A stretch of DNA of 64,000 nt from a virus, in the IMG/VR virus record IMGVR_UViG_3300032236_000679, positions 59,006 to 123,005 of that record; one strand, 5' to 3'. The position numbers and the translations under genes are program-made. The notes under the pieces were generated by a model. The model did not search any database, was not told the origin of the DNA, and saw only the letters and a program-made list of their open reading frames with translations. This document shows, in pieces, positions 5,185 through 64,000 of this stretch (the stretch's first letter is position 1; every line of letters begins with the position of its first letter).

Positions 5185-5628
5185 CTATATTTTCATTGCC
5201 ACTTCATCTAAGTGTTCGGCAGGAGGATAGAACTTAACTGCTGAAATATTACCATTATAATACTTGCGTAAACCATTAGGTAATCTAGATCTAAGCACAT
5301 CTTCCATAATTTGAATTTCAACTTCTCGATAGTGCAAACTACCTTTAGTTTTATGTAAACTTACAATTTGAAATTTGTAATTGTCTTTACCATATAACTC
5401 GATTGATTTGTTAAGTTCAACACTGGAACTGGTATACTTGCGCCAATTGGATTCTTTTTTGAAATGCTTACGGTTCTTTCTTCCCTTAACTGCTTTAGTT
5501 AAGTTACTGTAAAACTGTTTCTTTCCAATATATTCTCTGCCAGTATTAAGTTCGATGATTCGATATATAAAACCAAACCATTCTTCAACATTAAATTCGT
5601 GCGGAAATTCCCAGTGTCCTAGATCCAT
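5185..5628 (-). CDS. GIY-YIG endonuclease (T4 endonuclease II-like)
   Basis: GFIYRI...REYIGKK motif, conserved R/E residues and C-terminal YYNGNI; standalone, about 147 aa. Confidence 0.8.
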   Translation of the reverse strand: MDLGHWEFPHEFNVEEWFGFIYRIIELNTGREYIGKKQFYSNLTKAVKGRKNRKHFKKESNWRKYTSSSVELNKSIELYGKDNYKFQIVSLHKTKGSLHYREVEIQIMEDVLRSRLPNGLRKYYNGNISAVKFYPPAEHLDEVAMKI

Positions 5629-10783: not shown

Positions 10784-11094
10784 TGGCAATTAATACCAAG
10801 TATAATACCAATAGTCCCTACAGAGAAACTCCTTTCATTGAAGGTAAGTTTTTAGATATTTTAACTCCGCGAGAATTTCCTGCACAAGCAGATGATCTTT
10901 ATAAACAAATTGGTTCTCAATTTCAGTATAGACCTGATCTATTAAGTTGGTGGGTTTATGACACCACTGACTATTGGTGGGTTTTCATGATGAGAAATAG
11001 AGATGTTATAGTTGATCCAATTTGGGATTTCACTGCTGACAAATATATCTACATTCCTAAAAAAGATACGTTGACTAGAATATTGGCACTGTAA
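10783..11094 (+). CDS. Baseplate wedge protein, gp53/LysM-like
   Basis: YRPDLLS..VY...YWWVF..RN...DPIWDF pattern; start at the TAATG overlap (the track uses 10774). Confidence 0.7.
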   Translation: MAINTKYNTNSPYRETPFIEGKFLDILTPREFPAQADDLYKQIGSQFQYRPDLLSWWVYDTTDYWWVFMMRNRDVIVDPIWDFTADKYIYIPKKDTLTRILAL

Positions 11095-32500: not shown

Positions 32501-35439
32501 ACAGAACATTTGATGAAAATGGTTTCTTGAACATCTTAGGCGATCAAGCAATTGATACTAATCTATACAGCACATTTAAAGACAATCAACTGGGTATTAG
32601 ACCAGAAGACATGATTACTGATGGTGCTAGTTATGTTGACACATACAACAGTTATGCACCTGAAGAATTTGTTCCAGGTTTGATGATGGATAGTTTGGAT
32701 ATCAGAGTTAAGACTCTAACAGATATTCAAAGTTTCAAATCACCAGACATTGTTGTTGTTTCAAAGTATGCAGATGATATTACTTCAACTTTTAGTTTTG
32801 ATCCTAAGATCACTGACACTAAATTACCAGTTGGTGGAATTGAAGAATTAACTGTTGTAAACGATATAGCAGGTCTACAAATTGAAGGTGTTGATTATAC
32901 CGTTGATTGGAAAAATCAATCAATTACATTCTTCCATGCTCCCGCTATTCCCAGTGCAGTTTTCATTGTTATAATTGGCGCAAGTGGTCAAAAAATAATT
33001 GCAGATGCAAAATTCATTGGCGATGGTGAAACTACAGAATTTGAAATCGTTGATTCTGTTCTTGAAAATGTTCAGCAGGCATATGTTAAGGTTGATGGTG
33101 AAAAAGTCACTAACTGGTCACTGGCATCTGCAAGTTACGGCAGTCAGGACTACTTGGCCTTAGGATTTGGAAACACTGGATTTGAAGATCAATACTGGGA
33201 TCAAAATAGATTCCCAGTTGCGTTAACTTGGCAACCATTACATGATTATTTCACTGATGAATTTGTCAGTTATGGTGCTGCAACTTTCAGAGTTGTGCGT
33301 CCATTTACAAGCAAATATGAATTTGACACAGATAATCTAATAAGTGCAAGTAGAACATTTATCAGATTCCTACGTCCACCCGCTAAAGATTCTGTAATTC
33401 AAATTCACTTGTTTGATTTAAATCTAGCCATTAAGGCATATAGTGAAATTGTAAATCAAGAAGTTGTATTGCCCAGTGATTTCCAACAGGGAACAGCAGG
33501 ATTTGAAATTAAACTTCAAGAGCCTGTTCAATATTTGCAACCATGGGAAGCAAGAATTGATGTTACAGTAAACGGTCTATACTTAGAACCTACTAATCAA
33601 GCATACTATTCTGGCAATGGTAAAACAAAGAATTACTCTTTACCTAAAACTAGAAACGTGGATGTTAATGTAATAACAAATTCTGATATTGTTGCAATTG
33701 TAGACGGAGTAGTTAAACTAAATCCATCTGAATACACTGTCTTTAGAAATGGCATTGATGTTCCTGTTGTACAGTTTAATACTGCTCCAGCAGAGGGATC
33801 AAAAATTATTATTAGCAATAAGAGCACTTCAAACTATTATGTGTATAACGAAGACTCTATCTTAATTAAACCATCTTACCCATTATTTCCCAATGATAAG
33901 ATAAAGATTAAGATTTATAGTAATCATGATCAGTATGACACAAGATCTCAAGTATTCAGTGCTGTTAATAATAATGAAACTTCGGTTCAAGTTCAAAATT
34001 TCTCAGGATGGGATTCAATTGCTTATGATTCAGTGAATTATGTCGAGCAAGGATTAGTAGATGGTACACCTACTATTAGTCCTTTTGCAGTACATCATCG
34101 TGATGTGATAACTGGAACAACATCAACTGCTGTAACTGATTATGGCTTTGCTGATGGCGCCACAGTTGGATTTGACACTTTAACTTGGGACACAAATCAA
34201 GTTACCTATGTAACTGATTATCACTTGGATCTTCCTCTACAAGGTACTGCTGAAGTTAAGATAAATGGAGTAATTAAATCCTTCTTAACAGATTATACTG
34301 TTCCAGATGTTGCAACTATTCACTTCTTATCAAAAGTATTAACAACTGACACTATTACAATTGTTGATCAGTATGATACATTGATTTCAGTAGTTTCTAA
34401 GTTTACAACAACAACTGCAATTGATATCAATGCTCTTAACATAATGGTTGATAACATTCAGTTGATTAGAAATGTTGATTATACACTAACATCTGCATAT
34501 CAAATTAACTTTAATACAGCAACAGTTCAAATCTTACCATCTGCTTACTTGCAAGTATTCTCACAAACTACTGTTGCTGATCCTGCTGCAAGTTTTGGAT
34601 GGGATGATGAATATACTATTACAATTGAACCTGCTGGTACTGTTGTAAGTCTAGGATTTGATCTCAATGGTTGGGACAAGAGTGTATGGGATAATGAAAG
34701 AACTAATACTATTGCGGCTCCAACTTACACCTTAAGTAGACCTGTTAATAATATTAACAATATCACAGTTGCACTAAACGGTGTAGATTTGAATGCATAT
34801 TATGATTATGTATTAACTACTCCAACACTGTTAAGATTGAATCCTGATTTGTCAATTACAGCAAATGATATAGTACTAGTTTCACATATCAGCGAAGATT
34901 CAAGAATACAAAATATTGAATTTAGAATCTTCAAAGGTATTGCTGACACTTACGAATACTTGGCAATTGGAGATACAACTACAACAACACTAAGCCAAGA
35001 TCTATATCAAACTGATGAGTGGATATATGTAACCGACATCAGTATATTCAGTAATCCAGATCCTGCACAGTCAAAGCCTGGTATTGTTTATATAAACGGT
35101 GAAAGAATTACTTTCTATATACTGGATATTATGAACAAGAGATTGGGTCAGTTGCGTCGTGGTACACAGGGAACAGGTACTCCAGTTGTTCATGATGCTG
35201 GCTTAAGAGTATACGATGGCGGATCACACACTGAAATTCCAGAATCGAGAGATCAATATACTGTTGCTGATCAAGATATTATCTTAATTAGTAAGAAAGG
35301 CAACGAGCATTTGGTACAAAATGGACAGATTTATCGTCGTGGTAAACTTTGGTTAGATCCTGGAAAAACTACGCCTGCTAATGGAACCGGTATATTGAAT
35401 TCAAATACAATACAAGCAAAATTCTTAAAGGCAATATAA
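20503..35439 (+). CDS. Giant (4,978 aa) baseplate wedge/receptor-binding virion protein
   Basis: Single ORF after gp6 containing FG-GAP-like beta-propeller blades, ChtBD3/CBM5-12-like W.P...Y...D.V.Y repeats and GDG.T..F repeats. Confidence 0.65.
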   Translation: MVKKSLDNVPKINQSTKNKKLSNEFLPTVFRTNTNRRFLNATVDQLIQEPRMTSIYGYIGRQDISPNYKPEDAYVRETESYSQFYQLEPGLVINQRIAGTNRFKKTNAYNYVDLLNGIALQGGINTDHSRLFSNEYYNYEGFVDLDKLINYSKYYWVPTGPKTLEVNGYNADQNKTEVIFLENLTVRRPVEPNTTGNAIANKPVGLIGYQFDQISNKVNPTLNLVRGRTYTFDVDQLGHSFWIQTEPGLGEGIGYQENIFKREVYGVDNNGAEIGKVTFRVPFSDEQYGIETLSKFTDVDLVTDIAYTDIQGVSYEEFIKTNTIDGTRSLTTKKIVMINKDPASWGDVVEDQRYGIWQLQNNNGILNLAFVSAWPTGTKIFVKEGRQYGNVNVVKNSQGIIFKEPYITAKLDTLYYQDGVDASVFGEIRLINIDPEQATINIETRVLNQSSYTSPNNVEFTNGLKVVFRGYVQPTEYAGKEYVVEGVGTGIKLIPWDNLITPDPNNPNLGDGYDAETEAYDTINYDLALNAPLRKDYVVINRASIDGNAWSRTNRWFHEDVIRYASTFNNPTAAVVLDNAFRGIRPIIEFDANLQLFNHGNKFAGQVTAIDTTVTDIANQVEGYSPYVLIDSNGNYFSDNVALENGTYVIFTQERYENTKGRIYQVSNIIPHVPAQRTKLTTQFAPNNTTLLHLNDVSYLYINMKVSGTGILPNTVIKSIDSINSIVTLSQPVVDVTRGTTITFDSNNKQVHLIPVHDMVEGETVVAVSGAKRQNYVYWWHNGNWQYAQQKTSLNQAPLFDIFTLDGISFGNGDYYPSTTFAGSKLFGYREGTGTRDSELGFPLSFRSIGNIGDIVFENYYDTEQFHYSLNQTDQIVDVSTGYAHENNPADLTFKLRNNWIKIKDFSKQYIQKKFIASDAHKNNFLIDVKFNQNSQNEKSLFVYVNGTELTYSQDYTLLGQKNHVYVSLNSDLTTGDVLVVRIFGTPNSSKEIYTLPKNLTDNSLNETFTSLTLGQIRNHLVEIADNSLLFKGEAAGVNNFRDIDYKRVPGRILQHSAGVHIAQLFFNNETTNIVKAIEYSRKAYRNFKNQFFSLLSSMEFDNFDDPRACLDQLFDEISFNATMDQSFYYTDMLPVGSNSFTFNEYLIADTNYKKFNVINTFDIQNPNYRSVLVYQKKSNSNYGVQLLKDTDYTFDGYQIDILTTLDINDNIIIYEYESTKGCMVPATPTKLGLYPKFTPGLYLDDTYLGRQEQDGTYTRFPRPMIQGHDGSKIAAFNDFRDAIIVEFEQRVYNNLNVEYINDPAISFNGVEPGAFRNTEYSMDEWTRLLSGSFLEWAGSNSVDVFNNLFTNNARSNDPFSFNYSQGVDAIYNEGVPGYWRGIYKYFFDTDRPHTHPWEMFGFSQKPAWWEARYGAAPYTSGNEILWKDAEVGLIYQHGYDAYIDSRYARPGATKIIPVDEHGTLLAPISSVVINLKTQTASSSWRFGDQSPQETAWRRSSDYPYSIIEAWALAKPAQFCTWSLNRHDLIRVDALDQIINPTTGKRNITLAISDEDKYIPGSNIWLRDRLAGLNIDVQTNFVEIFENLGINLVYKMSSYTDKNYIEVIAEQASPNSTNSGIIVPKENYDIVLTKSAPVGLSTYSAVIIKKSGGVFSVYGSDNNKPYFTIIPRKFNGNFYNIKVSQSTAIVRVDDEETIDIIPYGQQFTSKQQIVDFLISYGAYLQSIGFTFGTINPNETEIQFSNSTRDWANSSKQFLYWTEQGWDDSVVISLTPAGTQINFNSGFGVVDDLTNSYSGVRLSNSDDRILQTKEYSTFREGTNFNLVVRDQTKGIHLVDLYTVAYEHTLVFDNVTVFNDIIYQPNLGNRQYRMKVNGFKTRDWDGSLYAPGFLVNHRDVELWQPITDYYKGDIVEHKNAFFTAKYFIPGAPKFKEMDWLPVNSELLGKKLIPNMAFNAQQFENFYDVDTFDVNSTADMQARNSTGFVPRNYLDDLGLNTISQHKFYLGMIREKGTNAVLNAFLRAKLPYVDNNVSVTEQYAVRLASYGGINDVSDVELSLANSTKLNGSIVVEFIDNNETKSTLWNSYRPKDLLIKPANYDKNFFSLTESYPLQVGTGGPVLPQDVDTSVFDIQKIYNLSMGGLGFDMTEGYGEGSRIWVASDLENKWNVYRLCGNENIVITSVSVINNTNELEFTTDRPHGLKFNDNILIKKGIATGKISVNMSGFYRINSVGPTVFRTPIYTGAVTTSGKMNAMLYKLKSVRYQDRTAFSSDLPPGGWKTGDKAWINGSEGNWELLNLQTNYFLSQTLTPIFSGDSDNFGNGISMKSTEDVMAVGAPGKDSGAVYIYNKNYYGVWSVSQSIIPENTVANDFGFSVNCNDKNLVITGAPASNSNKGLAYVLKVNNVDSNVLFQVLNPAGLNSGDQFGYDVTSSQDGTWVAVSAPSDNTVYIYKFNKISTPALYSYVAESATEFELPSILLGTGIAADAVKVYLNERILIPSVEYSISGNNVELSISTNNNDVVNIVYEDYYKLITSFSNTEAAGSFGYSIDFNKDGTELAIGAPYLVNPANSNSTNFGAVYLFERTIETFITPSYDKTTLSSAEFASVSSVTLENTPVEPVVYVNGELDTSHSINGKVVTFTNGNLTRSVGYDSIVTVESNTFRLLETKRFGTDQANLYYGSKVKICPTSCSLYVGAKGYNVIQEKSQFLNNGAVVRYVNEARSYGTITTQKNIPTVTGGHSIRINGMKITFTGTNMGDGRTIINWTANTSYLTTNFVRYNSIIYKPTQNFTSGSSFSSTYLTPYRLTIDEIVADINAVKIPGITATKVKNMITISSDSMLAHNKIIINTTDLGTALDDLGLTVFKYYQFIGAQSNQSYTNFGNQFTLDASGNRLLISATQTDNIKVTTFDKGNTTFDAKSTRVYTATYRSGSAYLYEYQGDEYETPSTHGNFAYAQTFNTSKMSTNDYFGTGIALTKNWAIVTALGDGTKAGTVYTYQNKTGAYNWNVERSKLDPVDSRKIARAYLYNDNTKELIADLPVIDPEHGIPVPEAAEQLKYIVNYDPAVYTNSPNTFTFAVDVRSSWAEEHVGQLWWDTNQIKYAEWNQGDLITRFSNWGLSVPNSFASVYEWIESSMTPSEWNVANPTTPSLYTAGEVYSIRVVIDPVTLAPTNKYYFWVANSNANYGMERRDSAIMLQDLIANPRKNDNQPFISVIGTNAIALFNCQDLVDNDTRLHITMHKNQYVNPVHTEWTMFDDGSDLGIASEFLDRLNDSLAGIDNAGKIVPDLSLSEKQRYGLEIRPRQTTFVDNFSARNTWISNVNAVFARYPMVLLRETSILESYDLPPEVDGTSIKLEVSTEIELTYLNKSFYNIGDKILIANDSTVGGWSLRELAPSSFDSTVLEWKIVKVKSYDLRDYWTYSDWYSPNISRTVAVDKIVDYDYEIADINPLVGQIIKVKNGTGGNWKLVLVRANSLELVAQQNSTIQLTKSLYDNISAGFGIDNQSFEIKGFAKDNALEFRKIFDITVNKLLNKELRAEFKSIMTAMFDDITTQFKQNDWLMKTSLVNVKNEVRSLNQIPVYVKENADTVLNFIEEVKPFHTKVKEYINSYNQLDLAGFDTTDFDLPSYFNKNTQRYRQPQLKKVYNEELGRWVDTPNVVDTGIWYIDPLDPTQTLQNTKAVYQPWIDNHKYQILYVDLDNAGTGYKQNDTTVVIRGDGRGATAEAFVKNGSIYAINVTNTGYNYTYATIEILGSGTGATAYAKLGNGKARTFSTTIKFDRFTYQTSTKEWAPNTSYSLTDLITYNGSVYRLATDTNLIDLQSTGITTGDKFSFDNLIELVVKVWEPHKKYAKDTIIVYNHVPYVALTDFTSGRYFEYNTDVTVTNSISWQPATYYAVNTVVSYNGVAYKVISNFTSPNSFTLDNLLTVYDIAKYPGGYFDDAASRVWSYYNPKSGMPGKDLAQVMSGVEYPGVNVIGPTFDQKLGFGFELYERIAYDDRTFDENGFLNILGDQAIDTNLYSTFKDNQLGIRPEDMITDGASYVDTYNSYAPEEFVPGLMMDSLDIRVKTLTDIQSFKSPDIVVVSKYADDITSTFSFDPKITDTKLPVGGIEELTVVNDIAGLQIEGVDYTVDWKNQSITFFHAPAIPSAVFIVIIGASGQKIIADAKFIGDGETTEFEIVDSVLENVQQAYVKVDGEKVTNWSLASASYGSQDYLALGFGNTGFEDQYWDQNRFPVALTWQPLHDYFTDEFVSYGAATFRVVRPFTSKYEFDTDNLISASRTFIRFLRPPAKDSVIQIHLFDLNLAIKAYSEIVNQEVVLPSDFQQGTAGFEIKLQEPVQYLQPWEARIDVTVNGLYLEPTNQAYYSGNGKTKNYSLPKTRNVDVNVITNSDIVAIVDGVVKLNPSEYTVFRNGIDVPVVQFNTAPAEGSKIIISNKSTSNYYVYNEDSILIKPSYPLFPNDKIKIKIYSNHDQYDTRSQVFSAVNNNETSVQVQNFSGWDSIAYDSVNYVEQGLVDGTPTISPFAVHHRDVITGTTSTAVTDYGFADGATVGFDTLTWDTNQVTYVTDYHLDLPLQGTAEVKINGVIKSFLTDYTVPDVATIHFLSKVLTTDTITIVDQYDTLISVVSKFTTTTAIDINALNIMVDNIQLIRNVDYTLTSAYQINFNTATVQILPSAYLQVFSQTTVADPAASFGWDDEYTITIEPAGTVVSLGFDLNGWDKSVWDNERTNTIAAPTYTLSRPVNNINNITVALNGVDLNAYYDYVLTTPTLLRLNPDLSITANDIVLVSHISEDSRIQNIEFRIFKGIADTYEYLAIGDTTTTTLSQDLYQTDEWIYVTDISIFSNPDPAQSKPGIVYINGERITFYILDIMNKRLGQLRRGTQGTGTPVVHDAGLRVYDGGSHTEIPESRDQYTVADQDIILISKKGNEHLVQNGQIYRRGKLWLDPGKTTPANGTGILNSNTIQAKFLKAI

Positions 35440-44805: not shown

Positions 44806-46157
44806 CAAAAAGTAAACTTAAGGACGAAACTTTTCTAGAATATAAAAGACGTGTACTTGATACTAAGAGTGCAAGTTTCTGCGGAGCAAAATGGTACAAT
44901 GCAACTATTTGGCTTGGTAGTGGCATGACTACAAGTTGTCACCATCCTCTACCTCATAAAGTCTCTGTAGAAGAAGTTGTTGCAAATCCTCGTGCATTAC
45001 ATAATACGCCTCAGAAGAAAATGGAACGTCTTATGATGCAGAAAGGGCAACGTCCCAGTGGATGTGAATACTGTTGGAAAATTGAAGACAGTAGTCCAGA
45101 AGCCATCAGCGACAGACCTTATAAGTCAATGATATATACAGAACATGAACTGTGGTTTGCCAATGCGATTCCCAGTGACACAGATATTAATTTAAGAACT
45201 TTAGAGATAGCATTTGATCGTACATGTAACTTTGCTTGTAGTTATTGCAACCCTGCTTTCTCAACAACTTGGGCAAAGGATATAAAACAGAATGGACCTT
45301 ACAACAATCTTACTAGCGATGGTCGTAACCATTTTACTCATGAGCATGGTAGTAGCCAGCTTTATCGCGTGGGCGAAGAAAATCCGTACGTGGAAGCCTT
45401 CTTCAAATGGTGGGAATCAGATCTTAAAGACACCCTCCAAGAGCTTCGGATAACTGGCGGCGAACCAACTATGAGCGCAGACTTTTGGCGCTTGATTGAT
45501 TGGTTCAAAGATAATAAAAGTAATGTGAAACTTGCAATCAATAGTAATCTTGGTGCAAAGCAAGATTTAATTGATCGTCTAATTGCAGCAAGTCATGACA
45601 TCCCACACGTAGAACTCTATACCAGCTGCGAAGCAACAGGATTATCTGCTGAATATATTCGTGACGGTATGGTGTGGCGAGACTGGATTGACAATGTCAA
45701 CAGGTTGGTCGAAGAAGGGAACTTTAAAGCCCTACATGTCATGGCTACGATTAACGGACTTTGTTTGCCAACAATAACAGACTTCTTAGATCTTATTATG
45801 TTAAGCAAAGAACAGTATGGTCGTAATTGGCCCACTGTGACATTAAACATTCTTCGCTTTCCCAGTTTTCAAAGTCCTCTTGTATTGCCAGTTGAATATA
45901 GACAAACAGTAATTACAAAATTGCGTAAGTGGTATATGAAGAATGGAGAAAGTCCTTTACTGCATGAGATGGAACGTGAACATATTCTACGACTGATAAC
46001 TTATCTTGAATCTGTTGAAAGTCCACATGCTGGTGCAAGTGCCATTGAGGATTTACAGAAAGATTTTAAACATTTCTATACACAGTACGATCAACGTCGC
46101 AATAAGAACTTTGAAAAGACATTTCCTGAATTAAAGGCATGGTATAATGGCATATAA
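44802..46157 (+). CDS. Radical SAM/twitch protein (2 of 5)
   Basis: CNFACSYC, ITGGEP; CGAKW...SCHHP...CEYCW; ATGA overlap start. Confidence 0.85.
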   Translation: MTKSKLKDETFLEYKRRVLDTKSASFCGAKWYNATIWLGSGMTTSCHHPLPHKVSVEEVVANPRALHNTPQKKMERLMMQKGQRPSGCEYCWKIEDSSPEAISDRPYKSMIYTEHELWFANAIPSDTDINLRTLEIAFDRTCNFACSYCNPAFSTTWAKDIKQNGPYNNLTSDGRNHFTHEHGSSQLYRVGEENPYVEAFFKWWESDLKDTLQELRITGGEPTMSADFWRLIDWFKDNKSNVKLAINSNLGAKQDLIDRLIAASHDIPHVELYTSCEATGLSAEYIRDGMVWRDWIDNVNRLVEEGNFKALHVMATINGLCLPTITDFLDLIMLSKEQYGRNWPTVTLNILRFPSFQSPLVLPVEYRQTVITKLRKWYMKNGESPLLHEMEREHILRLITYLESVESPHAGASAIEDLQKDFKHFYTQYDQRRNKNFEKTFPELKAWYNGI

Positions 46158-47454
46158 TTATAATGGTAAAGAGCCAATTAAAATAGCAGTTGATGATCTA
46201 AGTGACAAGCACAAGGATCTCATTTTTGAAAATAAAACATTCTGTATGCTGCCATGGATTCATCTGCATAGTTTTCCAACAGGGGAAGCATATCCCTGTT
46301 GTAATACAGAAATGAAATACAAAGTTGGTAACACCAATCAACAAAGCATTAAAGAAATTTGGGATGGAACTGAAATGCAAGACGTTAGAAAACGTATGCT
46401 TGCAGGCGAAAAAGTAGAAGGTTGTAGTCGTTGTTATGAGCAAGAAGATTCTGGGTTCTTCAGTATGAGACTCAGCAGTAACAAACACTTTGGACATCAT
46501 ATTGCATTAACAGATAATCCCACACCTGACATGAAACTTGTCTATTGGGATATTCGTTTTAGCAATTTGTGTAATTTACGTTGTCGTAGTTGTGGACATA
46601 TCTTCAGCAGTAATTGGTATGATGATCAAGCCAAATTAGTTGAAATGGAACATGGCAGTGGAGAGGGTTGGAAAAGTAGACATCAGCGTTTGTACTTTGC
46701 TGGGCGCAGTGAAGATGATATGTGGGATCAACTCAAAGATCAAATTGATAATCTTGAACAAGTTTATTTTGCAGGTGGCGAACCTCTTATTATGGAAGAG
46801 CATTATCGTCTTCTAAATGAATTAATTAAACGTGGTCGTACTGATGTTAGACTTATATACAACACTAACTTTACTGAACTTGCTTACAAGAAAACTAATG
46901 TGCTGAATTTATGGAAAGAATTCAAAAGTGTTAGTGTTGGTGCCAGTTTAGATGCTATGGGCATGAGAGCAGAATACATTCGTAAGAATTGTAATTGGAG
47001 CCAAATTGAACATAACAGAGAAGAAATGTTGCAGATATGTCCCAATGTAGATTTTTATATCAGTCCCACTGTCAGTATTATGAATGCATGGCATGTCAGT
47101 GATTTTCATCGTGCATGGGTTGATATGGGCTTACTAAAGCCGCAAGATTTAAACATTAACATATTGCAGGATCCTGCATATTTTAGAATTGATGTATTAT
47201 CTCAGAAGTTTAAAGAAGAGATAAAAGCAAAGTGGGAAGATCATCTCACATGGTTACGACCTTTAGATGGGTTGACACGTGCCACTACAGGATTTGAAAG
47301 TGCAATTAATTTTATGATGGCAGATGACAAGAGCCATTTACTTCCAAAATTTTGGGATCGCACTAATAAATTAGATAAGATACGTAATGAGTCGCTACTA
47401 GGCGCAATACCGGAGTTATATCATGAGCAAATTATGCATTCTACCATGGGTTAG
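46147..47454 (+). CDS. Radical SAM/twitch protein (3 of 5)
   Basis: CNLRCRSC, FAGGEP; CMLPW...PCC...CSRCY; ends TAG TGT TGA. Confidence 0.85.
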   Translation: MAYNYNGKEPIKIAVDDLSDKHKDLIFENKTFCMLPWIHLHSFPTGEAYPCCNTEMKYKVGNTNQQSIKEIWDGTEMQDVRKRMLAGEKVEGCSRCYEQEDSGFFSMRLSSNKHFGHHIALTDNPTPDMKLVYWDIRFSNLCNLRCRSCGHIFSSNWYDDQAKLVEMEHGSGEGWKSRHQRLYFAGRSEDDMWDQLKDQIDNLEQVYFAGGEPLIMEEHYRLLNELIKRGRTDVRLIYNTNFTELAYKKTNVLNLWKEFKSVSVGASLDAMGMRAEYIRKNCNWSQIEHNREEMLQICPNVDFYISPTVSIMNAWHVSDFHRAWVDMGLLKPQDLNINILQDPAYFRIDVLSQKFKEEIKAKWEDHLTWLRPLDGLTRATTGFESAINFMMADDKSHLLPKFWDRTNKLDKIRNESLLGAIPELYHEQIMHSTMG

Positions 47455-53900: not shown

Positions 53901-55013
53901 ACATGGTTACCAGACTTAGATCAAGTTGAATATACACAATGCTGGCCCAGTAATGATCAAGAGAAGGGCGATACTTTTCTAATTCATATCCCAACTTATC
54001 TACGCACTGGTAAATTTGAATTTAATTTTGATCACGAAAGTGTACTTAGAGTACCATGGCCTCCTTTTGTATATAATGAAGATAGTTTAGCAGAAGCATT
54101 GAACAATCATCCGCGTATGTCAAGTTTGTATGTTGCCTACTATAAACAGAATTCAGTTATTAATAGATTCCCATCACCTTGCTTATGGGATAAACGACCT
54201 GTTGTTGGATTAAATCTATGCAACAGTGTAAGTCTTGTTCCGCGAGATTGTGTGGTAAAAGAAGAAATATACGAGTACCCTTATCTTAAACGACATGCAA
54301 ATATGGCTAGAAATAGTGAATTGGATGTTGTCTTTATTCATAATGGTGAAAAAGATTCAGGCGTAAATCTAACTAGATGCAATTTAACTATGCCCAGCAA
54401 TATGAATTTGAGAATAAGCAGTGGTGTAAATGGCAGACTTAAAGCATACCAAACTGCTGCTGAATTAAGCAGTACAGATTGGTTCCTTGCTGTATTTGCC
54501 AAGTGTCATATGACGGAATCATTTAGATCTTTCTCATGGCGTCCTGACTATTGGCAGAAACCCAAGCATTATATCTTCCATAATCATAATGTTGATCTTG
54601 ATCTAACGTACGGACACATGGCACCAATTGCATATAATAAAAAGTTAATGCTTGAGAATAAAGGCGGTCTTGACATGACACTGGCTCAGGAACATGCTGT
54701 TATACCAATTGTTCTAAGTGAGACACAACTTACTGATCCATGGGATACTTGGCGTACTGCTTTCCGCGAAACTGTTAAGTTGCTTTACTATTCAAAGACT
54801 GACGACAGCATTGAATTAAAATATAGATTACACAAGTGGCTTAATGCTGAAGAGCAATGGTCTAAACACAATCCATGGTATCAATATGGATCAAAAGATG
54901 CAAAGGATTTCTTTGATAGTGTTGATGGCGATTGGGGATGGATTATGGTTACAAACGAATGGGATTGGCTGCGTAAGCGATTTAATGCACTATATCCTAC
55001 ACAGCAAACTTAA
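50976..55013 (+). CDS. Large protein with 71-aa tandem repeats and a C-terminal GT-like domain
   Basis: About 11 copies of EWVWETDSRIDYTNFDFTWLPDAW...H.FCM.G..QLSYTRLYN; C-terminus (ELDVVFI...WRTAFRETVKL) parallels the 42462 protein. Confidence 0.7.
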   Translation: MYDTFYFDKDLDRAKQQAIMESQTEYAWVLYKGVDYSNFDLRFVPSKFKKSYAHTWGSHNNQNSHTTWLLPIEQIRKNQSVEIEQHDIVLPAKNILGWQWITDKRIDYTNFNFNWLPDEWDWDKNHAFTMKGTTKLSYTFLQKEGAVETVYHPAELEFMSDIVDDEWVWETDSRIDYTNFDFTWLPDAWDIDKVHCFCMQGLEQLNYTRLYNSKHKQTESKFHATNLKFKPNAAADEWVWETDSRIDYTNFDFIWLPDAWDINKEHCFVMQGTTQLSYTRLYNAKATIVETKYHKSSLTFKPNAAADEWVWETDSRIDYTNFDFTWLPDAFDLDKDHYFCMDGCEQLSYTRLYNTKHERTESKYHKSNLRFLPGSATDEWVWETDSRIDYSNFDFNWLPNEWDKDKVHYFCMRGCKQLSYTRLINLKHKSKGNKYHSADLMFKPGAAADEWVWETDSRIDYTNFDFTWLPDEWDMNKDHLFCMNGLTQLSYTRLYNKKKERVSKKFHKSTLKFKPKAAAEEWIWETDSRIDYTNFDFTWLPDAFDCDKVHEFCMRGKEQLSYTRLYNAKCKQIESKFHSADLDFIPGAAKDEWVWETDSRIDYSKFDFTWLPDAWDRDKDHYFCMRGLEQLSYTRLYNSKFKQTTAKFHMSTLEFNPGAANDEWVWEKDERIDYTGFDFTWLPDAWEKEYAHCFCIQGKEQLSYTKLINIKHNVQGKNKFYESNLQFIDKTSKFTREEIEHIRDLPEWIWEIDRRIDYTNFNFDWLPDAWEKEYSHWFCMQDKEQLSYTRLINTKHNEKDKNKFYAADLKFTQPTTIIEWPNFAEAMLTGDDWFDCLVNWVVQQNIQQEWVWVVDSRIDYTKFDFNWLPDRDGLPYIHCFSMQGHEKLSYTWLVNTNSLRDRQYKFIKSNLKFLKPHADTVVLDMGFNNNNFVHYQKKLRFTGTMEAMLSSAVKRATNEWLHVISTCCDYMMFDFTWLPDLDQVEYTQCWPSNDQEKGDTFLIHIPTYLRTGKFEFNFDHESVLRVPWPPFVYNEDSLAEALNNHPRMSSLYVAYYKQNSVINRFPSPCLWDKRPVVGLNLCNSVSLVPRDCVVKEEIYEYPYLKRHANMARNSELDVVFIHNGEKDSGVNLTRCNLTMPSNMNLRISSGVNGRLKAYQTAAELSSTDWFLAVFAKCHMTESFRSFSWRPDYWQKPKHYIFHNHNVDLDLTYGHMAPIAYNKKLMLENKGGLDMTLAQEHAVIPIVLSETQLTDPWDTWRTAFRETVKLLYYSKTDDSIELKYRLHKWLNAEEQWSKHNPWYQYGSKDAKDFFDSVDGDWGWIMVTNEWDWLRKRFNALYPTQQT
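51471..53174 (+). repeat. 213-nt tandem repeat array (8 copies in exact register)
   Basis: The GAATGG(G/A)T(A/G)TGGGAA anchor recurs at 51471, 51684, 51897, 52110, 52323, 52536, 52749 and 52962. Confidence 0.9.
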
Positions 55014-56079
55014 CTACTTCAACAACTTTCTCAACTTCTGCATCAGTCATATGCCAATGATTAGGCAAACTAATGCATCTACCTTTTAGATTAGATGCAT
55101 TTGGACAATAATCAACTTTTGTTTTATATGCAGTATAATGATGCAGAGGTTTATCGTAATGACTTGCAAATTCAATATTATGTAATGATAGGAAAGTTTT
55201 TAATACTTCAGGGTTGGTAGGAGCAATTTCAAAAACATAATTTGTATGAGTGCAGCAATAATTGCGATTTGGCATTTCAATTTTATCTTCAAGTTCTAAA
55301 CGATAGTACCAAGATATTTCACTTTTGCGACGCATATTATCATCAAAGTTTTGATATTTGACATTTAAAACTGCTGCTTGTACAGCGTCAATACGACAAT
55401 TAAGTCCTGGCTGTATAACATCTCCGTTGTGTTTACCTTGCACACAGAATGTTTTTAGTTGTTCAACTGTATAGTTTTTACTGACAATGGCACCTGCGTT
55501 ACCCATTGCCCCAAGATTCTTAAGAGGATTAAAACTAAGAGCAAGACTATCGCAGTAATCAATTTGATGAAAGTAATCATAAAACAATTCAAAACTCTGT
55601 GCCGCATCAACTATAAGTTTAACTTTATAATGATCGCACAATCTTTTAAATCTTGTTAGATCAACGCCTTGCCCATATAGATCAACTACAACTACTGCGC
55701 TGACATTTTTAAGTCTATCAAGATATTCTGCTAGCCGTGTAAAATCCATAAGCCAGCATTTATCGATATCGACAAAAGCAGGAATAAGTCCTGCGGCAAC
55801 AACCGCATTAGCAGTTGCTACATATGTCATTGCAGGAACAAGTACTGTACTACCTTTGGGTAAATTGGCAATTTGTAAAGCAGTAATAAGAGCATTAGTA
55901 CCTGAATTTGTAGCAACGCAACTGGCATTGTTATACAAACGACTGACTAAACTTTCAAATTCATCAACTGCTTCGTTAGCAAAATATTGTCCGCTTGTGG
56001 ACACAGTCATTATTGCATTTTGAATTTGATTGCGTTGATCTTCGTATTGCTCTTTTAAATTATAAAATTTAATAGACAT
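54997..56079 (-). CDS. DegT/DnrJ/EryC1/StrS family sugar aminotransferase
   Basis: ATNSGTNAL, VPAMTYVATANAV, IVDAAQS, LSFNPLKNLGAMGNAG (PLP lysine). Confidence 0.9.
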   Translation of the reverse strand: MSIKFYNLKEQYEDQRNQIQNAIMTVSTSGQYFANEAVDEFESLVSRLYNNASCVATNSGTNALITALQIANLPKGSTVLVPAMTYVATANAVVAAGLIPAFVDIDKCWLMDFTRLAEYLDRLKNVSAVVVVDLYGQGVDLTRFKRLCDHYKVKLIVDAAQSFELFYDYFHQIDYCDSLALSFNPLKNLGAMGNAGAIVSKNYTVEQLKTFCVQGKHNGDVIQPGLNCRIDAVQAAVLNVKYQNFDDNMRRKSEISWYYRLELEDKIEMPNRNYCCTHTNYVFEIAPTNPEVLKTFLSLHNIEFASHYDKPLHHYTAYKTKVDYCPNASNLKGRCISLPNHWHMTDAEVEKVVEVVKFAV

Positions 56080-59336: not shown

Positions 59337-59581
59337 TACTGTTCTCCGGTTGTAGTTTCAGTTGAAGTAGTTGTAGCAGCAGTTGGATCAGGAATTGCTC
59401 CATTTGCAATTAGAAAAGCCTTGAGTCTATCATAAACTTGCCCAACATTTGACATCTCATCTGCTCTAAATGCTCCACGCTGAGCACATGCTTCATAAAC
59501 TTGAAGCGAGAAAATCAAGTCTTGAATGCCAAAACCTGGTGTTTCAGTAGTATCAGTTGATGCGGTGTTTTCTTCAGTCAT
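59336..59581 (-). CDS. Hypothetical protein
   Basis: 81-aa ORF; late core TAAATA on the minus strand at 59604-59609. Confidence 0.6.
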   Translation of the reverse strand: MTEENTASTDTTETPGFGIQDLIFSLQVYEACAQRGAFRADEMSNVGQVYDRLKAFLIANGAIPDPTAATTTSTETTTGEQ

Positions 59582-59688
59582 ATTAAATTCCTTTTCGCGA
59601 AAATATTTACTGTAAATTAGAATAGCACAATTAATTTGTGGTTGTCAAAATTAATTATTAAGTAATGTAGAAAGAGTGGGAATATCTG

Positions 59689-60318
59689 ATGAGTTTTTTA
59701 GAAAATAAATTTGCTATTGTACGTGGTTATATTGATCCTCCCATAATGGATTTATTTTATCAGTATTGTAAATTACAAGTAAACAGTGCAGGATTTAAAA
59801 AAATGAATTCTGAATCTTATAATCCAGATTGGGATGGACGTTTTGGTGATTCACTTGTGGCAAATACATATGCTAGATATGCAGATCCCCTGTGGGAAAG
59901 TTTGTTATTATCCAGTGTTAAACCATTAGAACATTGCACAGGCTTATCAATTGTTCCTAACTTTAGTTACTGGAGATTTTATCAAGAAGGGGATGTTCTA
60001 ATTAAACATTCCGATAGACCTGGCTGTGAAATCTCTGTTACTTTGTGTATTGGGTATGAAGGAGAGAATTGGCCGCTGTTTATAGAAAGCGAAAACTATA
60101 CAGGTCCTATTTTGTTAGAACCTGGAGATATGTTAGTCTATAAAGGTCGTGAAGTACCTCATTGGCGTGAAGAATTTAAAGGAGTGAATCAAGCACAAGT
60201 TTTTCTGCAATATGATATAGCAGGCAATGAGGATAATAACTTTTTAGATAAAAAACCCATGCCTGCTATTCCAATTACATACTCATTAAATTTTGGATTA
60301 CCTTCGAATAAAAGTTAA
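59689..60318 (+). CDS. 2OG-Fe(II) oxygenase (prolyl hydroxylase-like)
   Basis: LIKHSDRPGCEISVTL (HxD)...GDMLVYKG...PHWRE (distal His). Confidence 0.8.
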   Translation: MSFLENKFAIVRGYIDPPIMDLFYQYCKLQVNSAGFKKMNSESYNPDWDGRFGDSLVANTYARYADPLWESLLLSSVKPLEHCTGLSIVPNFSYWRFYQEGDVLIKHSDRPGCEISVTLCIGYEGENWPLFIESENYTGPILLEPGDMLVYKGREVPHWREEFKGVNQAQVFLQYDIAGNEDNNFLDKKPMPAIPITYSLNFGLPSNKS

Positions 60319-60914
60319 TCCTCATATAGATCTTCCCATGTATCCATTGTCTTAGAGTCCACAACTGTTCCTTCAAAGTCAGGATTAAGAAAGACTTCTT
60401 TGCCATTTCTGCCGTCGCCGTACCATTGATAATAAGCATTGTCTTCAGATAATATTTCAAACTGATTGGAATAGACTAATGCAAGCACAGTAAGATCATC
60501 TTTGGCGATCTCAATGACATAACTATTTCTTCCACAACCGCCTGCATACTGCATACAAGGGCCATGTTTAATGTCATTGTGTTGCAGTAACCAAAGGAAC
60601 TCATTCTTGTAACGGAAATGAATTCTAATTGGTAATGCTGCTTTTAATCGTTCCTCATCTTCAGGTGTTAGAATGTCAATTGAGGCATTACCGTTTTCAA
60701 GTCGTAGTAATGCGTTCTTGAACTTTAATGCACCTTTTGTGCGGACATTGAGGGGAGTTTCTTTTGTGGTCCAAGGGATGTTTGCTTCGACGTGATCAAC
60801 GTAATACGTCTTGCCCTTAGCCATTATGATCCACATTGGGATGGAACTGTCTTCTAAATGCTTTTTATTAAAATGAAATACAATATCTTTACATGCAAGT
60901 TCAATCTAAGCCAT
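60315..60914 (-). CDS. Hypothetical protein with an in-frame TAG at codon 3 (amber-readthrough candidate)
   Basis: AAGGAG RBS, 8-nt spacer, ATG GCT TAG ATT GAA..., then an open frame (IELACKDIVFHFNKKHLEDSSIPMWII...) continuous with track ORF 60315..60836; 199 codons in total. Confidence 0.7.
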
Positions 60915-60933
60915 TTTGTTTTCTCCTTATTAT

Positions 60934-61587
60934 TTAATTTAGCATCAATTCATCTACAAAGTCTAATAATAATTTATGATGGTGCCCTGCATGCCAATGT
61001 GATTTAATATAAGCATAGGGCTTATCATACCAAAAATCCATGCTTTCTGGATGACAACCAATTAATCCAATATGATTCTGTATGATTGCCATGGGATCTT
61101 GATTGGCATAACGTGCTACAGTTTTAAATTTAGTTTCATCACCGACAAAAGCACAACCATCATAAAAGAACATATTTTCTTTTTGATTATTCCATATTAC
61201 TGGTGCAACTGTACCATATGAACGTCTTATATCTGCGTTGGGTTGTGTTATATATTGCACAGTATCAACGCTATCTAATATATCAAACCATCGACTACCT
61301 GCCCAATACGCACCCATACATATACCGAGATAGTGTCCGCCATTTGCAACATAATCTGCTATGGCATTCTCTGCTCGTCTTCTAAAGAAATTATCATATG
61401 TTGAATAGTCTCCAATACCTCCTGGAAACGCAACACAGTCATATGAACGGAATTTTTCATTCTTGATATCGTCAACTGACATAATATCAATAGAATATTT
61501 TGAAGATAATGCTTGTATCATGCCATCGCAACATTGCGTTGAGCATTCTGGGTGATGTTGAAATAGTGCTATTCTAGATTTGATCAC
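60934..61587 (-). CDS. BPL_N-like class I glutamine amidotransferase-fold protein
   Basis: VAFPGGIGD, GGHYLGICMGAY (nucleophile Cys), GLIGCHPE (His-x-Glu). Confidence 0.75.
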   Translation of the reverse strand: MIKSRIALFQHHPECSTQCCDGMIQALSSKYSIDIMSVDDIKNEKFRSYDCVAFPGGIGDYSTYDNFFRRRAENAIADYVANGGHYLGICMGAYWAGSRWFDILDSVDTVQYITQPNADIRRSYGTVAPVIWNNQKENMFFYDGCAFVGDETKFKTVARYANQDPMAIIQNHIGLIGCHPESMDFWYDKPYAYIKSHWHAGHHHKLLLDFVDELMLN

Positions 61588-61601
61588 CAGTTATTTAGTG
61601 T

Positions 61602-61673
61602 TGGCGCTTCCGGGGGGAATTGAACCCCCACTTGCAGTTTTAGAGTCTGCTAGCTCTCCACGAGCACGGAAGC
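61602..61673 (-). tRNA. tRNA with CUA anticodon (amber suppressor), tRNA-Pyl-type compact cloverleaf
   Basis: GCTTCCG T GCTC GTGGA GAGC T AGCAGA CTCTAAA ACTGCA AGT GGGGG TTCAATT CCCCC CGGAAGC G CCA; 72 nt; encoded CCA; anticodon at 61641-61643. Confidence 0.88.
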
Positions 61674-61681
61674 ATATTGTA

Positions 61682-62941
61682 TTAGTCGTTATCGTAATAA
61701 GCGAAACGACCAAATGCGGGTTCAATATTCTTATTATGACGATTGTTAATAATCCAAACAGTGTCACAATAATCTGGATCTCCCCAGTCACCCCAAATTT
61801 CACCATCAGTAAACATTAGCAGTAACTTAGGTTCGATACCTTCGCCCTTCATAAAGTTCCAGCAGACAGTGGGATCTGTTCCGCCAAAACCCTTAATCTC
61901 ATAATCCATAATGTCATCACTGCCATGAGCAGTAAATTCCTGAGGATTATGTACCTGCGTATCCCAGCACCACAAGTGAATACGATGATCTTCAAACGTA
62001 TCCATAATAGCCTTAACCTCACTGAAGAAGTCACGTGCCATTTCGTCAGTGATGGAACCTGAAGTGTCAAGACCAATACAAACATCAATTTGTGTCTGTT
62101 TTAGCATTGAAGGCAGTGAAAAACCAGTTTGGAAGTTCTTCTTGCTAGGTACAGCATATGTATAATCATTCTTAACAGTGCTTTGGATCTGCTGACGAAT
62201 GAATTCACGCCAGTCGATCTTAGGCTCAGTCAAATCTTTGATCATACGCTTCAGACCGCTGGGCAAGTTACCTGCACCCGATGCCTGAGCAGCACTGAGC
62301 AGTGCTTCTTTAAACTCGTCTTTAATCTGTTGACGTTCAGCATCGCTCAGTTTAGGACGACCATTGCCCTTACCATCCTTCTCTTCATCATCGCCATCAC
62401 CTTCGCCGTCAAGGTGATCGTCCAGCATCATCTCAGCAAGTTCGTCCAGCGAGATCTTCTGAACATTCTTCATGAGATCATCGTACACGGCTTCCCATGT
62501 CCAGCCCTCATACTTGCGATCATAGAGCACAGGCACAACGGTAATTTTCTTACCGAGGTTGTTATTGATACAGTCTGCGTTAACAACATAGTCCATTGCG
62601 ATGTTGGAAATGCGACGGTCACGGCTACCAGTACGGCTCATATGGTCATAAGCACAATGTAGAAGTTCGTGGCAGAACAGGAACATCATCTGTCCAGTGT
62701 CCAGCATATTGATGAACTTTGAATTGTAATAGAAGTGACGACCATCAGTAGCAGCAGTCTCGCACCAAGTGTCAGCATTGACAAGCTTGAGGCGCATGGC
62801 AAGATTACCAAAGAAACCATGTCGGAGGACCAGTGCTACACGAGCAGCCAAAATCTGCTGCTTGGCCTTTTCGTCCAAAATTGGATCCATTTTCTCAACA
62901 ATACGGGACTTTTTAGCGTTTTTGGGCATTGGCGTAGACAT
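61682..62941 (-). CDS. Putative metallopeptidase plus VWA domain protein (DUF2201-type)
   Basis: ETAATDG...HELLH (HExxH)...N.AMDYVVN; MIDAS DTSGS; GFGGTD; FTDG. Confidence 0.85.
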   Translation of the reverse strand: MSTPMPKNAKKSRIVEKMDPILDEKAKQQILAARVALVLRHGFFGNLAMRLKLVNADTWCETAATDGRHFYYNSKFINMLDTGQMMFLFCHELLHCAYDHMSRTGSRDRRISNIAMDYVVNADCINNNLGKKITVVPVLYDRKYEGWTWEAVYDDLMKNVQKISLDELAEMMLDDHLDGEGDGDDEEKDGKGNGRPKLSDAERQQIKDEFKEALLSAAQASGAGNLPSGLKRMIKDLTEPKIDWREFIRQQIQSTVKNDYTYAVPSKKNFQTGFSLPSMLKQTQIDVCIGLDTSGSITDEMARDFFSEVKAIMDTFEDHRIHLWCWDTQVHNPQEFTAHGSDDIMDYEIKGFGGTDPTVCWNFMKGEGIEPKLLLMFTDGEIWGDWGDPDYCDTVWIINNRHNKNIEPAFGRFAYYDND

Positions 62942-62965
62942 ATTTGGCTCCTTTGCTATGTTTAT

Positions 62966-62993
62966 ATAATAGCAGAACGTGAGATATTGTCAA
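62966..62993 (-). promoter_or_regulatory. Sigma70-type promoter driving VWA, tRNA-CUA, BPL_N and the amber gene
   Basis: TTGACA-16 nt-TATTAT with extended TGn; AAGGAG RBS before the ATG at 62941. Confidence 0.65.
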
Positions 62994-63018
62994 CCAGTTA
63001 TTTTGGGTAAATATTAGT

Positions 63019-63078
63019 ATGGCAATTGTAGTTGGATCTGGAATAACTATTGGCGGCGGGATTAAGATAGATACTTAA
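63019..63078 (+). CDS. 19-aa micro-ORF MAIVVGSGITIGGGIKIDT
   Basis: Own late core TAAATA at 63008-63013, 5 nt before the ATG; Gly/Ile periodic beta-strand pattern. Confidence 0.45.
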   Translation: MAIVVGSGITIGGGIKIDT

Positions 63079-63096
63079 TCAACGATAAATAACATT

Positions 63097-63360
63097 ATGT
63101 CTGCTAACGGTATCGCACATAGAGCAACTAAACAGTTAAAGCAAGTGGGTAGGTTAACCATAGCCGAAGCCAAACGACAAGGCAAAACTGTGGCTGCTGA
63201 TGGTACTATTTCTGGATCATACAATTCATCGAAACCATATTGGAGATATCTAAACACGTTAGATATCGATTTATTACCTTCCAAGTATGTTGACAATAAC
63301 GTGCAAGACAACCCAGCACCGTTACAAGACGGTAGACCCTGGAAAGAACCCCTATCATGA
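63097..63360 (+). CDS. Small hypothetical (probably virion) protein
   Basis: 87 aa; late core TAAATA at 63086-63091; ends GRPWKEPLS. Confidence 0.6.
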   Translation: MSANGIAHRATKQLKQVGRLTIAEAKRQGKTVAADGTISGSYNSSKPYWRYLNTLDIDLLPSKYVDNNVQDNPAPLQDGRPWKEPLS

Positions 63361-64000
63361 GCGGCTCAAACAAATTAGAATCAGCAGATTATCGTTTAAA
63401 GAATCTTACAAATGCACTGTATATTACAGGAACAGATGATGTTGCTATCAGAACAGGTATTCAAGGCAACATTAATGTTGCTGGTAATATTAATGTTCCT
63501 GGTAATGTTCAAGTTTATAGTAGTCCTGAAGATCCGGTTCATGTTCACGTTACTGAACTTGGAACATATGGCAATCTAAAATTATTCATGCCCGTTCAAG
63601 GTACGGTGCAAGTTAATAATTTTCCTGCAACACAAACAATAACTGGCAATGTTAACATTAGTACTATACCCAGCATTACTGTTAGCAGTGGCAATTTGGC
63701 AATCTATAGTATGCCTGCTGTTACTAATAATGGCGCATTTGCTGTTCAAGCAGCACAGAGTGGAGTTTGGTATGCTAATATCAATAACTTCCCAACAAGC
63801 ACAACTATAACAAGCGGTAATATTGGAATCTACAGTTTACCAGCAGTGGCACAGAGTGGCGTTTGGTATGCTAATATCAACAATTTCCCCACCAGCACAA
63901 CTATCACAAGTGGTAACTTGTCAATCTACAGTATGCCTGCTGTTACTAACAATGGAACATTTGCTGTTCAAGCAGCACAGGCAGGTGTTTGGTATGCTAA
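63357..64000 (+). CDS. Repeat-containing structural protein, 5' part (runs off the window end)
   Basis: ATGA overlap start; open to the end; repeats of AQSGVWYANINNFPTSTTITSGN..IYS.PAV. Confidence 0.6.
   Translation, partial: MSGSNKLESADYRLKNLTNALYITGTDDVAIRTGIQGNINVAGNINVPGNVQVYSSPEDPVHVHVTELGTYGNLKLFMPVQGTVQVNNFPATQTITGNVNISTIPSITVSSGNLAIYSMPAVTNNGAFAVQAAQSGVWYANINNFPTSTTITSGNIGIYSLPAVAQSGVWYANINNFPTSTTITSGNLSIYSMPAVTNNGTFAVQAAQAGVWYA

Follow-up and report, generated by a model that had tools for sequence, protein, structure and literature searches.

The stretch analysed here comprises 64,000 nucleotides (nt) of the IMG/VR virus record IMGVR_UViG_3300032236_000679 (positions 59,006 to 123,005 of its 123-kb contig; hereafter the window). 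On its minus strand, at 60914-60315, lies a gene whose third codon is the amber codon TAG, and a gene for a transfer RNA with the matching anticodon, tRNA(CUA), is found upstream on the same strand. We consider it probable that the gene is intact and that its protein is made only when the phage tRNA(CUA) out-competes the host release factor 1 (RF1) at this codon. An earlier note on this DNA, made from the letters only, had suggested a local translational switch that depends on the phage amber tRNA, and this suggestion is supported by the pairing of TAG and tRNA in dozens of diverged phages. The module appears to be a natural lock and key of translation that turns on a single codon, in phages that otherwise use the standard code.

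The amber leader and its conservation

The leader consists of a Shine-Dalgarno (SD) box AAGGAG (60928-60923), an 8-nt spacer and the sequence ATG GCT TAG (60914-60906), with the start codon at 60914-60912 and the in-frame amber codon at 60908-60906. After the TAG the frame runs on through 196 sense codons to a TAA at 60317-60315, which gives a gene of 199 codons with the UAG included. Past the TAG, the next ATG in frame is at 60836 and has no SD sequence before it, and the leader ATG is located 700 nt downstream of tRNA(CUA). The description of this leader in the earlier note, including the missing ribosome-binding site at 60836, is borne out base for base.

A scan of the contig for an SD box, an ATG and, within at most ten codons, a TAG followed by an open frame returned this one gated gene, and the control scans with TGA and with TAA returned one match each. 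One match per contig is chance level, and therefore the window by itself proves little; the significance of the arrangement comes from its conservation in relatives. Thirteen further open reading frames (ORFs) of the contig that have an upstream in-frame TAG were rejected as chance occurrences, since no SD precedes the extended start, and in several of them the TAG falls inside the SD region of the real gene.

The survey covered 80 IMG/VR loci, six from assemblies and 20 from a second scan. Among the 84 loci having the motif, 80 carry a TAG at the same place, most commonly in the form SD-ATG-NNN-TAG-ATT-GAA. Two codons precede the TAG in 68 loci and one to nine in the other 12, and the base 3' of the TAG is a purine in every TAG locus. 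The AGGAG or AAGGA box stands at a fixed distance to the ATG in essentially all loci, regardless of how many codons come before the TAG. The leader stop in the homologous loci is always TAG and never TAA or TGA, and the pattern holds down to about 40% protein identity, also in short forms made up of the N-terminal domain (N-domain) only. Homologues devoid of the TAG either start with Met exactly at the TAG position or have no residue there.

In the probable source run the site is covered at a depth of 44 with zero variants. Contigs of relatives from three other freshwater runs differ from the window at 60909, 60918 and 60920, and have 60906-60908 unchanged. As judged from these comparisons, the TAG is a conserved state of the clade, neither an error nor a recent mutation. 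It had been pointed out earlier that TAG is one substitution from CAG (Gln) or AAG (Lys); the TAG is, however, no recent substitution of this kind, and the 'Q' at position 3 of database homologues is the same TAG translated with genetic code 15 by gene callers, as holds for every such Q that was checked. Other database entries begin at the internal Met. Where the earlier note had considered CAG or AAG in the reads, homologues starting at 60836 or TAG-bearing relatives devoid of the tRNA, we found reads with neither codon, homologues that reach the upstream ATG and relatives that have the tRNA.

Translation of the leader and the gated protein

In the 25 codons after the TAG, compared over 80 distinct sequences, the mean pairwise differences at codon positions 1, 2 and 3 are 0.18, 0.13 and 0.485, respectively, and in the motif FHFNK the protein is invariant while the third codon positions are freely variable. 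Such a bias towards third positions means that the codons from the TAG up to the internal Met are translated.

The gated protein has many homologues of about 200 residues with full-length coverage. They share a conserved core in the N-terminal beta domain (FHFNKKHLED..PMW..YYV.HV..W.TKETP.N..TKG.IK.K), in which the Met of the PMW motif, the internal Met, is nearly invariant. The AlphaFold model has a predicted local distance difference test (pLDDT) score of 84 overall and 91 for the N-domain, places residues 4-15 in the first strand of this domain and gives a ferredoxin-like C-terminal domain. A profile search of 1.84 billion cluster representatives yielded 147 clusters with three architectures, namely the N-domain followed by the C-domain, the N-domain alone, and the domain at the C-terminus of a protein of 170-200 residues. 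Among these sequences the gate is confined to the forms where the domain comes first; Agrobacterium phage Atu_ph07 has no TAG and carries the domain as a fusion behind another one.

No match to the gated protein was found in Pfam, PHROG or PADLOC. The best hit of a PDB sequence-profile search was a WW domain with an E-value of 0.056, which is within noise, and Foldseek gave no PDB match at E <=0.001 and nothing specific in BFVD. The similarities obtained with VIA-align, to ACT/RRM ferredoxin folds for the C-terminal domain (Z <=6.7) and to OB-like folds for the N-domain (Z <=3.7), are likewise within noise, and in the ESM Atlas the part after the TAG matched unnamed clusters only, with scores <=0.85.

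The CUA tRNA and its linkage to the gene

The tRNA(CUA) of the window, an amber suppressor of 72 nt (61673-61602, minus strand) with encoded CCA and discriminator G, was found by ARAGORN and scores 42.1 bits against a gathering score of 29 with Rfam RF00005. Compared with the tRNAs of L001 and L006, the loci of the window's closest relatives, it shows compensatory changes in three stems (acceptor, D and T); these two tRNAs were missed by ARAGORN, and Infernal found them directly after the VWA-like gene described below. The D arm of the window tRNA is compact, with one nt between the acceptor and D stems and a D loop of 5 nt, and it keeps the GG of the D loop and a T loop TTCAATT. Most tRNAs(CUA) of the family have ordinary D arms.

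When the loci were searched with a covariance model and ARAGORN, a tRNA(CUA) was found upstream and on the same strand in 64 loci, at a median distance of 285 nt (minimum 15 nt). The 64 distinct CUA tRNAs all have G1-C72 and an encoded CCA, and C2-G71 is present in 58 of them. As discriminator, 50 have A and 13 have G. Forty-seven have the anticodon loop CUCUAAA and 11 have UUCUAAA, the loop being YU-CUA-AA or close to it in all. Similarity gave no isotype assignment when these tRNAs, anticodon masked, were set against 191 other phage tRNAs: the best identities, about 0.6-0.7, are scattered over Gly, Thr, Met and Glu, with Gln among the lowest, and the contig's own tRNA-Gln(CUG) is unrelated to the CUA tRNA.

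Clustering of the gated protein at 80% identity gave 45 clusters, for which the tRNA was sought within 6 kb. Both TAG and tRNA are present in 36 of the 45. Three clusters have the TAG and no tRNA within this distance, one has the TAG and an upstream sequence too short to judge, four keep the tRNA and have no TAG, and one has neither. A search of the whole records placed the tRNA about 8 kb off in two of the three TAG clusters that seemed to miss it, and, for the record with apparently neither element, 6.6 kb upstream. The co-occurrence of the tRNA with the TAG allele across related phages, proposed at the outset as a check, is thus met with in most of the family. No neighbouring gene family besides the tRNA is common to more than 14 of 63 loci, and within the loci compared only the tRNA and the gene travel together.

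Many of the module-bearing phages are large; they come from freshwater and soil, not gut, and some are T4-like (Gp23). A cultured member is Rhizobium phage RHph_I1_18, in which a short gated gene, unannotated, is located at 10911-11248 of MN988519.1 (L090:2477-2814 in our set). It reads M-S-E-F-M-TAG-N-E-S-C..FHFNKAHL and ends 20 nt before a tRNA annotated as 'tRNA-Pyl(cta)'.

Proposed mechanism

In the mechanism that we favour, ribosomes would start at the SD-led ATG and, one codon later, meet a UAG at which the host RF1 and the phage tRNA(CUA) compete. With the tRNA scarce or absent, a dipeptide only would be produced; with the tRNA abundant and charged by a host synthetase, the UAG would be read as an amino acid and the 199-residue protein made. 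Since tRNA and gene stand in one operon in the window, this would constitute a coherent feed-forward or AND gate, where the promoter counts twice for the output, so that leak would be suppressed and the protein delayed. The protein level would then read out the suppressor activity relative to RF1, and the early position of the UAG would keep the abortive product cheap. The identity of the inserted residue is probably unimportant, because the site belongs to a variable N-terminal tail; Lys or Gln would be a guess from the behaviour of CUA tRNAs in Escherichia coli. In the same bacterium a very early position of the UAG and a purine after it both favour suppression over termination, as reported by Bossi in 1983, by Miller and Albertini in 1983 and in work on minigenes.

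Several points weigh against this mechanism. What the sequences show is the anatomy, its conservation, translation of the leader, co-occurrence with the tRNA and the absence of general recoding; readthrough of this UAG by this tRNA, the expression and charging of the tRNA, the protein product and the regulatory purpose are inferences. The tRNA is retained beside gene variants that lack the TAG (L039, L051, L068, L076, L086 and L067), and it must therefore have another role, next to which the gate may take second place. Some relatives have a terminator-like hairpin or a distance of several kb between tRNA and gene, and co-transcription of the two is therefore not general. The proposal of the earlier note that one promoter serves both is plausible in the window and does not extend to the relatives, where the tRNA is found at distances from 15 nt up to 8 kb. 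Because the tRNA family resembles no standard isotype, its charging by a host enzyme is an assumption. A key encoded in cis gives the gate no independent input, and its advantage is a matter of argument. Since the PMW Met is nearly invariant, a shorter by-product from the internal Met is possible. Finally, the contig represents about 35% of the genome (CheckV), and the statement that the phage is not recoded therefore rests partly on a 93%-complete relative and a complete cultured one.

Alternative explanations

It is conceivable, if rather doubtful, that the module is an autoregulatory sensor. The tRNA would be kept for a separate purpose, and the gated protein would report the ratio of suppressor to RF1 and close a feedback loop. 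Under this explanation the tRNA might read through UAG stops of host or competitor genes, and the gated protein, as a putative nucleic-acid binder, would act as partner or regulator of either the tRNA or termination, setting the level of amber suppression. Both the retention of the tRNA by the TAG-less variants and the way in which the gene follows the tRNA through unrelated neighbourhoods fit with such a sensor, as do the OB-like and RRM/ACT-like fold resemblances of the two domains, which are weak and within noise.

We regard it as improbable that ATG-GCT-TAG is a two-codon upstream ORF and that the protein starts at the internal Met at 60836, by reinitiation or independent initiation, with the nearby tRNA(CUA) serving other purposes. 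SD-AUG-NNN-stop is the anatomy of lambda bar-type minigenes. The near invariance of the PMW Met agrees with such a start, code-11 gene callers start there in about 25 of the 147 cluster representatives, and the TAG-less variants that keep the tRNA indicate that it is not solely for the gated gene. Unlike in a bar-type minigene, however, the frame here runs on into selected coding sequence. The 23 codons between TAG and Met are under clear protein-level selection, in the model they form the first strand and helix of a domain predicted with confidence, and the TAG-less homologues that start at the TAG position include this stretch. Moreover, the internal ATG is without SD, the stop is always TAG although a plain leader ORF would not require it, and the tight linkage to the CUA tRNA would be a coincidence.

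Very unlikely is a general or block-wise recoding (code 15, TAG = Gln) with other recoded genes in the unseen 65% of the genome. Stop-codon-recoded phages were reportedly described by Ivanova in 2014, and a phage suppressor tRNA(CUA) is a hallmark of such phages. Like the code-15 phages (crAss-like, Lak and other gut phages), the present ones combine a tRNA(CUA), hosts with the standard code and an in-frame TAG that needs suppression; TAG is rare as a stop, ending 7 of the 102 ORFs in a contig that is only about a third of a genome, and the use proposed for recoding is regulatory (Borges et al., bioRxiv 10.1101/2021.08.26.457843). The low guanine-plus-cytosine (GC) content and the rare TAG stops also match the route to recoding proposed in that preprint (bioRxiv 10.1101/2021.08.26.457843).

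The coverage by ORFs, on the other hand, does not gain from reading TAG as sense. With code 11 and with TAG as sense it is 94.4% and 95.3% for the 123-kb contig, 85.4% and 87.0% for 63 related loci of 9-12.6 kb (86.2% in the TGA control), 94.1% and 93.5% for a relative of 331,570 bp (93% complete by CheckV), and 91.7% and 92.3% for the complete genome of RHph_I1_18 (170,978 bp), in which 27 ORFs end in TAG. No long ORF split by TAG was found in the contig or in the 93%-complete relative, and the ORF of 4,978 codons at 20503-35439 is open under code 11, as had been noticed beforehand. Exactly one convincing gated gene is present in each of the contig, the 331-kb relative and RHph_I1_18. The earlier conclusion that this is not code-15 recoding agrees with these figures. 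In contrast to the code-15 phages, there is one TAG gene per genome, with the TAG within the first 2-10 codons and a linked tRNA, and TAG is otherwise a stop; Gln insertion has no support, the tRNA is not Gln-like, and searches for a phage-encoded GluRS/GlnRS or release factor found none.

Two side observations concern TAG elsewhere in these genomes. In the contig, all five long genes that end in TAG (contig positions 428-1033, 4682-5506, 64190-64633, 105152-106459 and 114002-115084, the last three being 5185-5628, 46147-47454 and 54997-56079 in the window) are backed up by a TAA or TGA at a distance of 0-4 codons, whereas the background rate is about 35%; this may be chance or lineage-specific. 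Back-up stops as an adaptation to suppression were considered and dropped as not general, since the 93%-complete relative has them in 3 of 15 genes. The related loci contain 14 TAG hits that do not belong to the family, which matches the 17 each for the TGA and TAA controls. Only two of the 14 look alike, with the leader ATG GCA TAG ATT: L049:4470-5130, an ORF that carries the homing-endonuclease motif NUMOD3 and directly precedes the gated gene, and L062:5355-5730, an ORF of 125 codons adjoining a TAG-less family copy, for which no CUA tRNA was found within 6 kb.

A non-standard amino acid, similar to pyrrolysine and delivered by a tRNA of its own whose compact cloverleaf is Pyl-like, is a further explanation to which we give very little credence. 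The earlier suggestion of a special residue at this site belongs here and finds no support. As in the pyrrolysine system (pylT, PylS and the methylamine methyltransferases), a tRNA(CUA) is linked to a gene with an in-frame UAG, ARAGORN labels the window tRNA 'Pyl', by its anticodon only, and the short acceptor-D junction and 5-nt D loop of the sub-clade tRNA resemble the compact Pyl type. The differences are nevertheless substantial. PylS (TIGR02367) gave no match in the contig, the 93%-complete relative or RHph_I1_18 (searched: G000, G001 (93% complete), G005, G006 and the complete RHph_I1_18), while a Methanosarcina genome used as control was above the cut-off, and pylBCD are absent as well. 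Typical of tRNA-Pyl are a single base joining the acceptor and D stems, a small D loop lacking GG, a variable loop of 3 nt and an atypical T loop. In the window tRNA the GG of the D loop and the TTC of the T loop are kept, and most family tRNAs are canonical. The UAG is outside a functional site, in a variable tail 1-9 codons from the start, where TAG-less homologues begin with Met or do without the residue, and the hosts include Rhizobium.

It is scarcely plausible that the CUA tRNA is of the initiator type, with translation beginning at the UAG as it does with engineered amber initiators in E. coli, even though the start ATG of TAG-less homologues sits exactly at the TAG position. Bacterial initiators have a C1xA72 mismatch and three G-C pairs at the base of the anticodon stem; all 64 CUA tRNAs have G1-C72 and none has the three G-C pairs. 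The SD distance is, furthermore, fixed to the ATG and not to the TAG, which may be nine codons on. A nonsense mutation, pseudogene or assembly error in one genome, to which the single substitution from CAG or AAG and the truncation of the gene by code-11 callers might point, is refuted by the TAG in 80 of 84 loci, which come from a wide range of samples and studies, by the invariant reads and the relatives' contigs, and by the intact downstream frame under selection.

Operon, neighbouring genes and side elements

A sigma-70-like promoter (62993-62966, minus strand; TTGACA, 16 nt, TG-TATTAT) heads the operon. It matches 11 of 12 consensus positions, has an extended -10 and is the top match within 59500-63400, as a consensus match only. 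The first gene (62941-61682, minus strand) encodes a DUF2201_N metallopeptidase-like plus VWA-like (DUF2201) protein of 419 residues, which matches Pfam PF13203 at 5.5e-40 and PF09967 at 6.8e-15. The tRNA follows 8 nt after its stop, and a further 14 nt on is the GTG of a gene for a BPL_N or class-I glutamine-amidotransferase-like protein of 217 residues (61587-60934, minus strand; Pfam PF09825 at 2.9e-14 and PF00117 at 5.9e-05), whose stop is separated by 19 nt from the ATG of the gated gene. For the promoter, the gene order and the three gaps, all coordinates given by the earlier note hold. The VWA-like gene is also immediately upstream of the tRNA in L001 and L006, and across the wider family it is not a conserved neighbour. 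The BPL_N-like gene is outside the conserved module, because it is found only in the sub-clade of the window (6 loci).

The start of the BPL_N-like gene (window 60934-61587, minus strand; L006:3239-3892) seems to be a GTG without SD, and its conserved, Cys/His-rich N-terminus (..FQHHPECSTQCCDG..) is omitted by the L006 gene call. On the plus strand, a gene of 209 residues at 59689-60318 is convergent with the gated gene, the stop codons overlapping by 4 nt; it matches PHROG 2954, annotated 'ferrochelatase', at 7.7e-38. L001 and L006 have other genes at this place (SNase, with DHFR and ThyA further on).

Some RNA-like elements were noted near the CUA tRNA in relatives. A GC-rich element of about 65 nt, absent from the window, lies a few bases from the CCA of the tRNA and is near-identical in six lineages (L018:1345-1420, L029:5704-5780, L047:5711-5787, L041:3639-3716, L023:2937-3013 and L084:5884-5960). 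It forms a hairpin with a compensatory C/G swap, and covariation of its loop CC[CT]GU with a downstream AC[GA]GG suggests a pseudoknot. No Rfam family matches this element, which could be involved in processing of the tRNA 3' end or be a regulatory RNA (compare theta ribozymes, PMC10879173). It is followed by a terminator-like hairpin and an ORF of about 58 residues with a lipobox. A different conserved GC-rich stretch of about 130 nt, with no Rfam match and ending in a terminator-like hairpin, comes after the tRNA in L001:1585-1710 and L006:3095-3225; it is absent from the window, where the BPL_N-like gene starts 14 nt after the tRNA. The freshwater-2 RNA (RF02980; 78 bits, gathering score 49.9) is present at L023:2714-2794 and L020:2306-2386, both on the minus strand, ahead of a divergently transcribed gene and about 60 nt from tRNA(CUA).

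Outside the window, at contig positions 1076-7956, ten tRNAs are clustered (Val, Thr x2, Met, Asn, Gly, Leu, Ser, Pro and Gln-CUG). The CUA tRNA is apart from this cluster in the linear contig; in the 331-kb relative it is terminal in the contig, at the end which a circular genome would bring next to the tRNA cluster.

Comparison with known systems and meaning

Among known systems the module comes nearest to stop-codon recoding in phages with suppressor tRNAs, with which it shares the tRNA but not the defining mark, a large number of recoded genes. Its wiring is that of an engineered suppressor-tRNA coherent feed-forward loop, the 'leak dampener', in which the output needs both the mRNA and enough tRNA (PMC7969014). 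Placing tRNA and amber gene under one promoter is reported to remove leaky expression (PMC7969014). That circuit is synthetic and operates in E. coli, whereas the phage module is natural and conserved, and leak dampening by it is putative.

The module can also be compared to bldA in Streptomyces, where the availability of a dedicated tRNA-Leu(UAA) gates the translation of TTA genes. There, the codon is a rare sense codon, the clients are many scattered regulatory genes and the tRNA is chromosomal; here, a stop codon is contested with RF1 and there is one client gene, usually adjacent. In prfB, which encodes release factor 2 (RF2), an early in-frame stop similarly turns expression into a read-out of termination efficiency. 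prfB, however, uses UGA and a +1 frameshift that relies on a slippery site and an internal SD, and senses its own product, while the phage module has UAG in an unshifted frame, the conserved protein continuing in the same frame straight after the TAG, and would sense phage tRNA and host RF1. Our full-text literature searches did not turn up a single-gene amber gate linked to a phage tRNA, nor any treatment of the 'tRNA-Pyl' of RHph_I1_18.

The module poses a problem for annotation. Code-11 callers truncate or miss the gene, code-15 callers insert a false Gln, and ARAGORN labels the tRNA 'Pyl' or misses it. Phage suppressor tRNAs are at present explained as tools for a genome-wide change of code, and here they appear in the smallest form, with one tRNA, one stop and one gene. 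This offers a simple system for the competition of a phage tRNA with RF1 and for its charging by host synthetases, and RHph_I1_18 on Rhizobium phaseoli provides a cultured phage-host pair that carries it. It would be a natural counterpart of the synthetic circuit built to silence leaky genes, and for these phages it may be either a stable end state or a first step on the proposed path to recoding.

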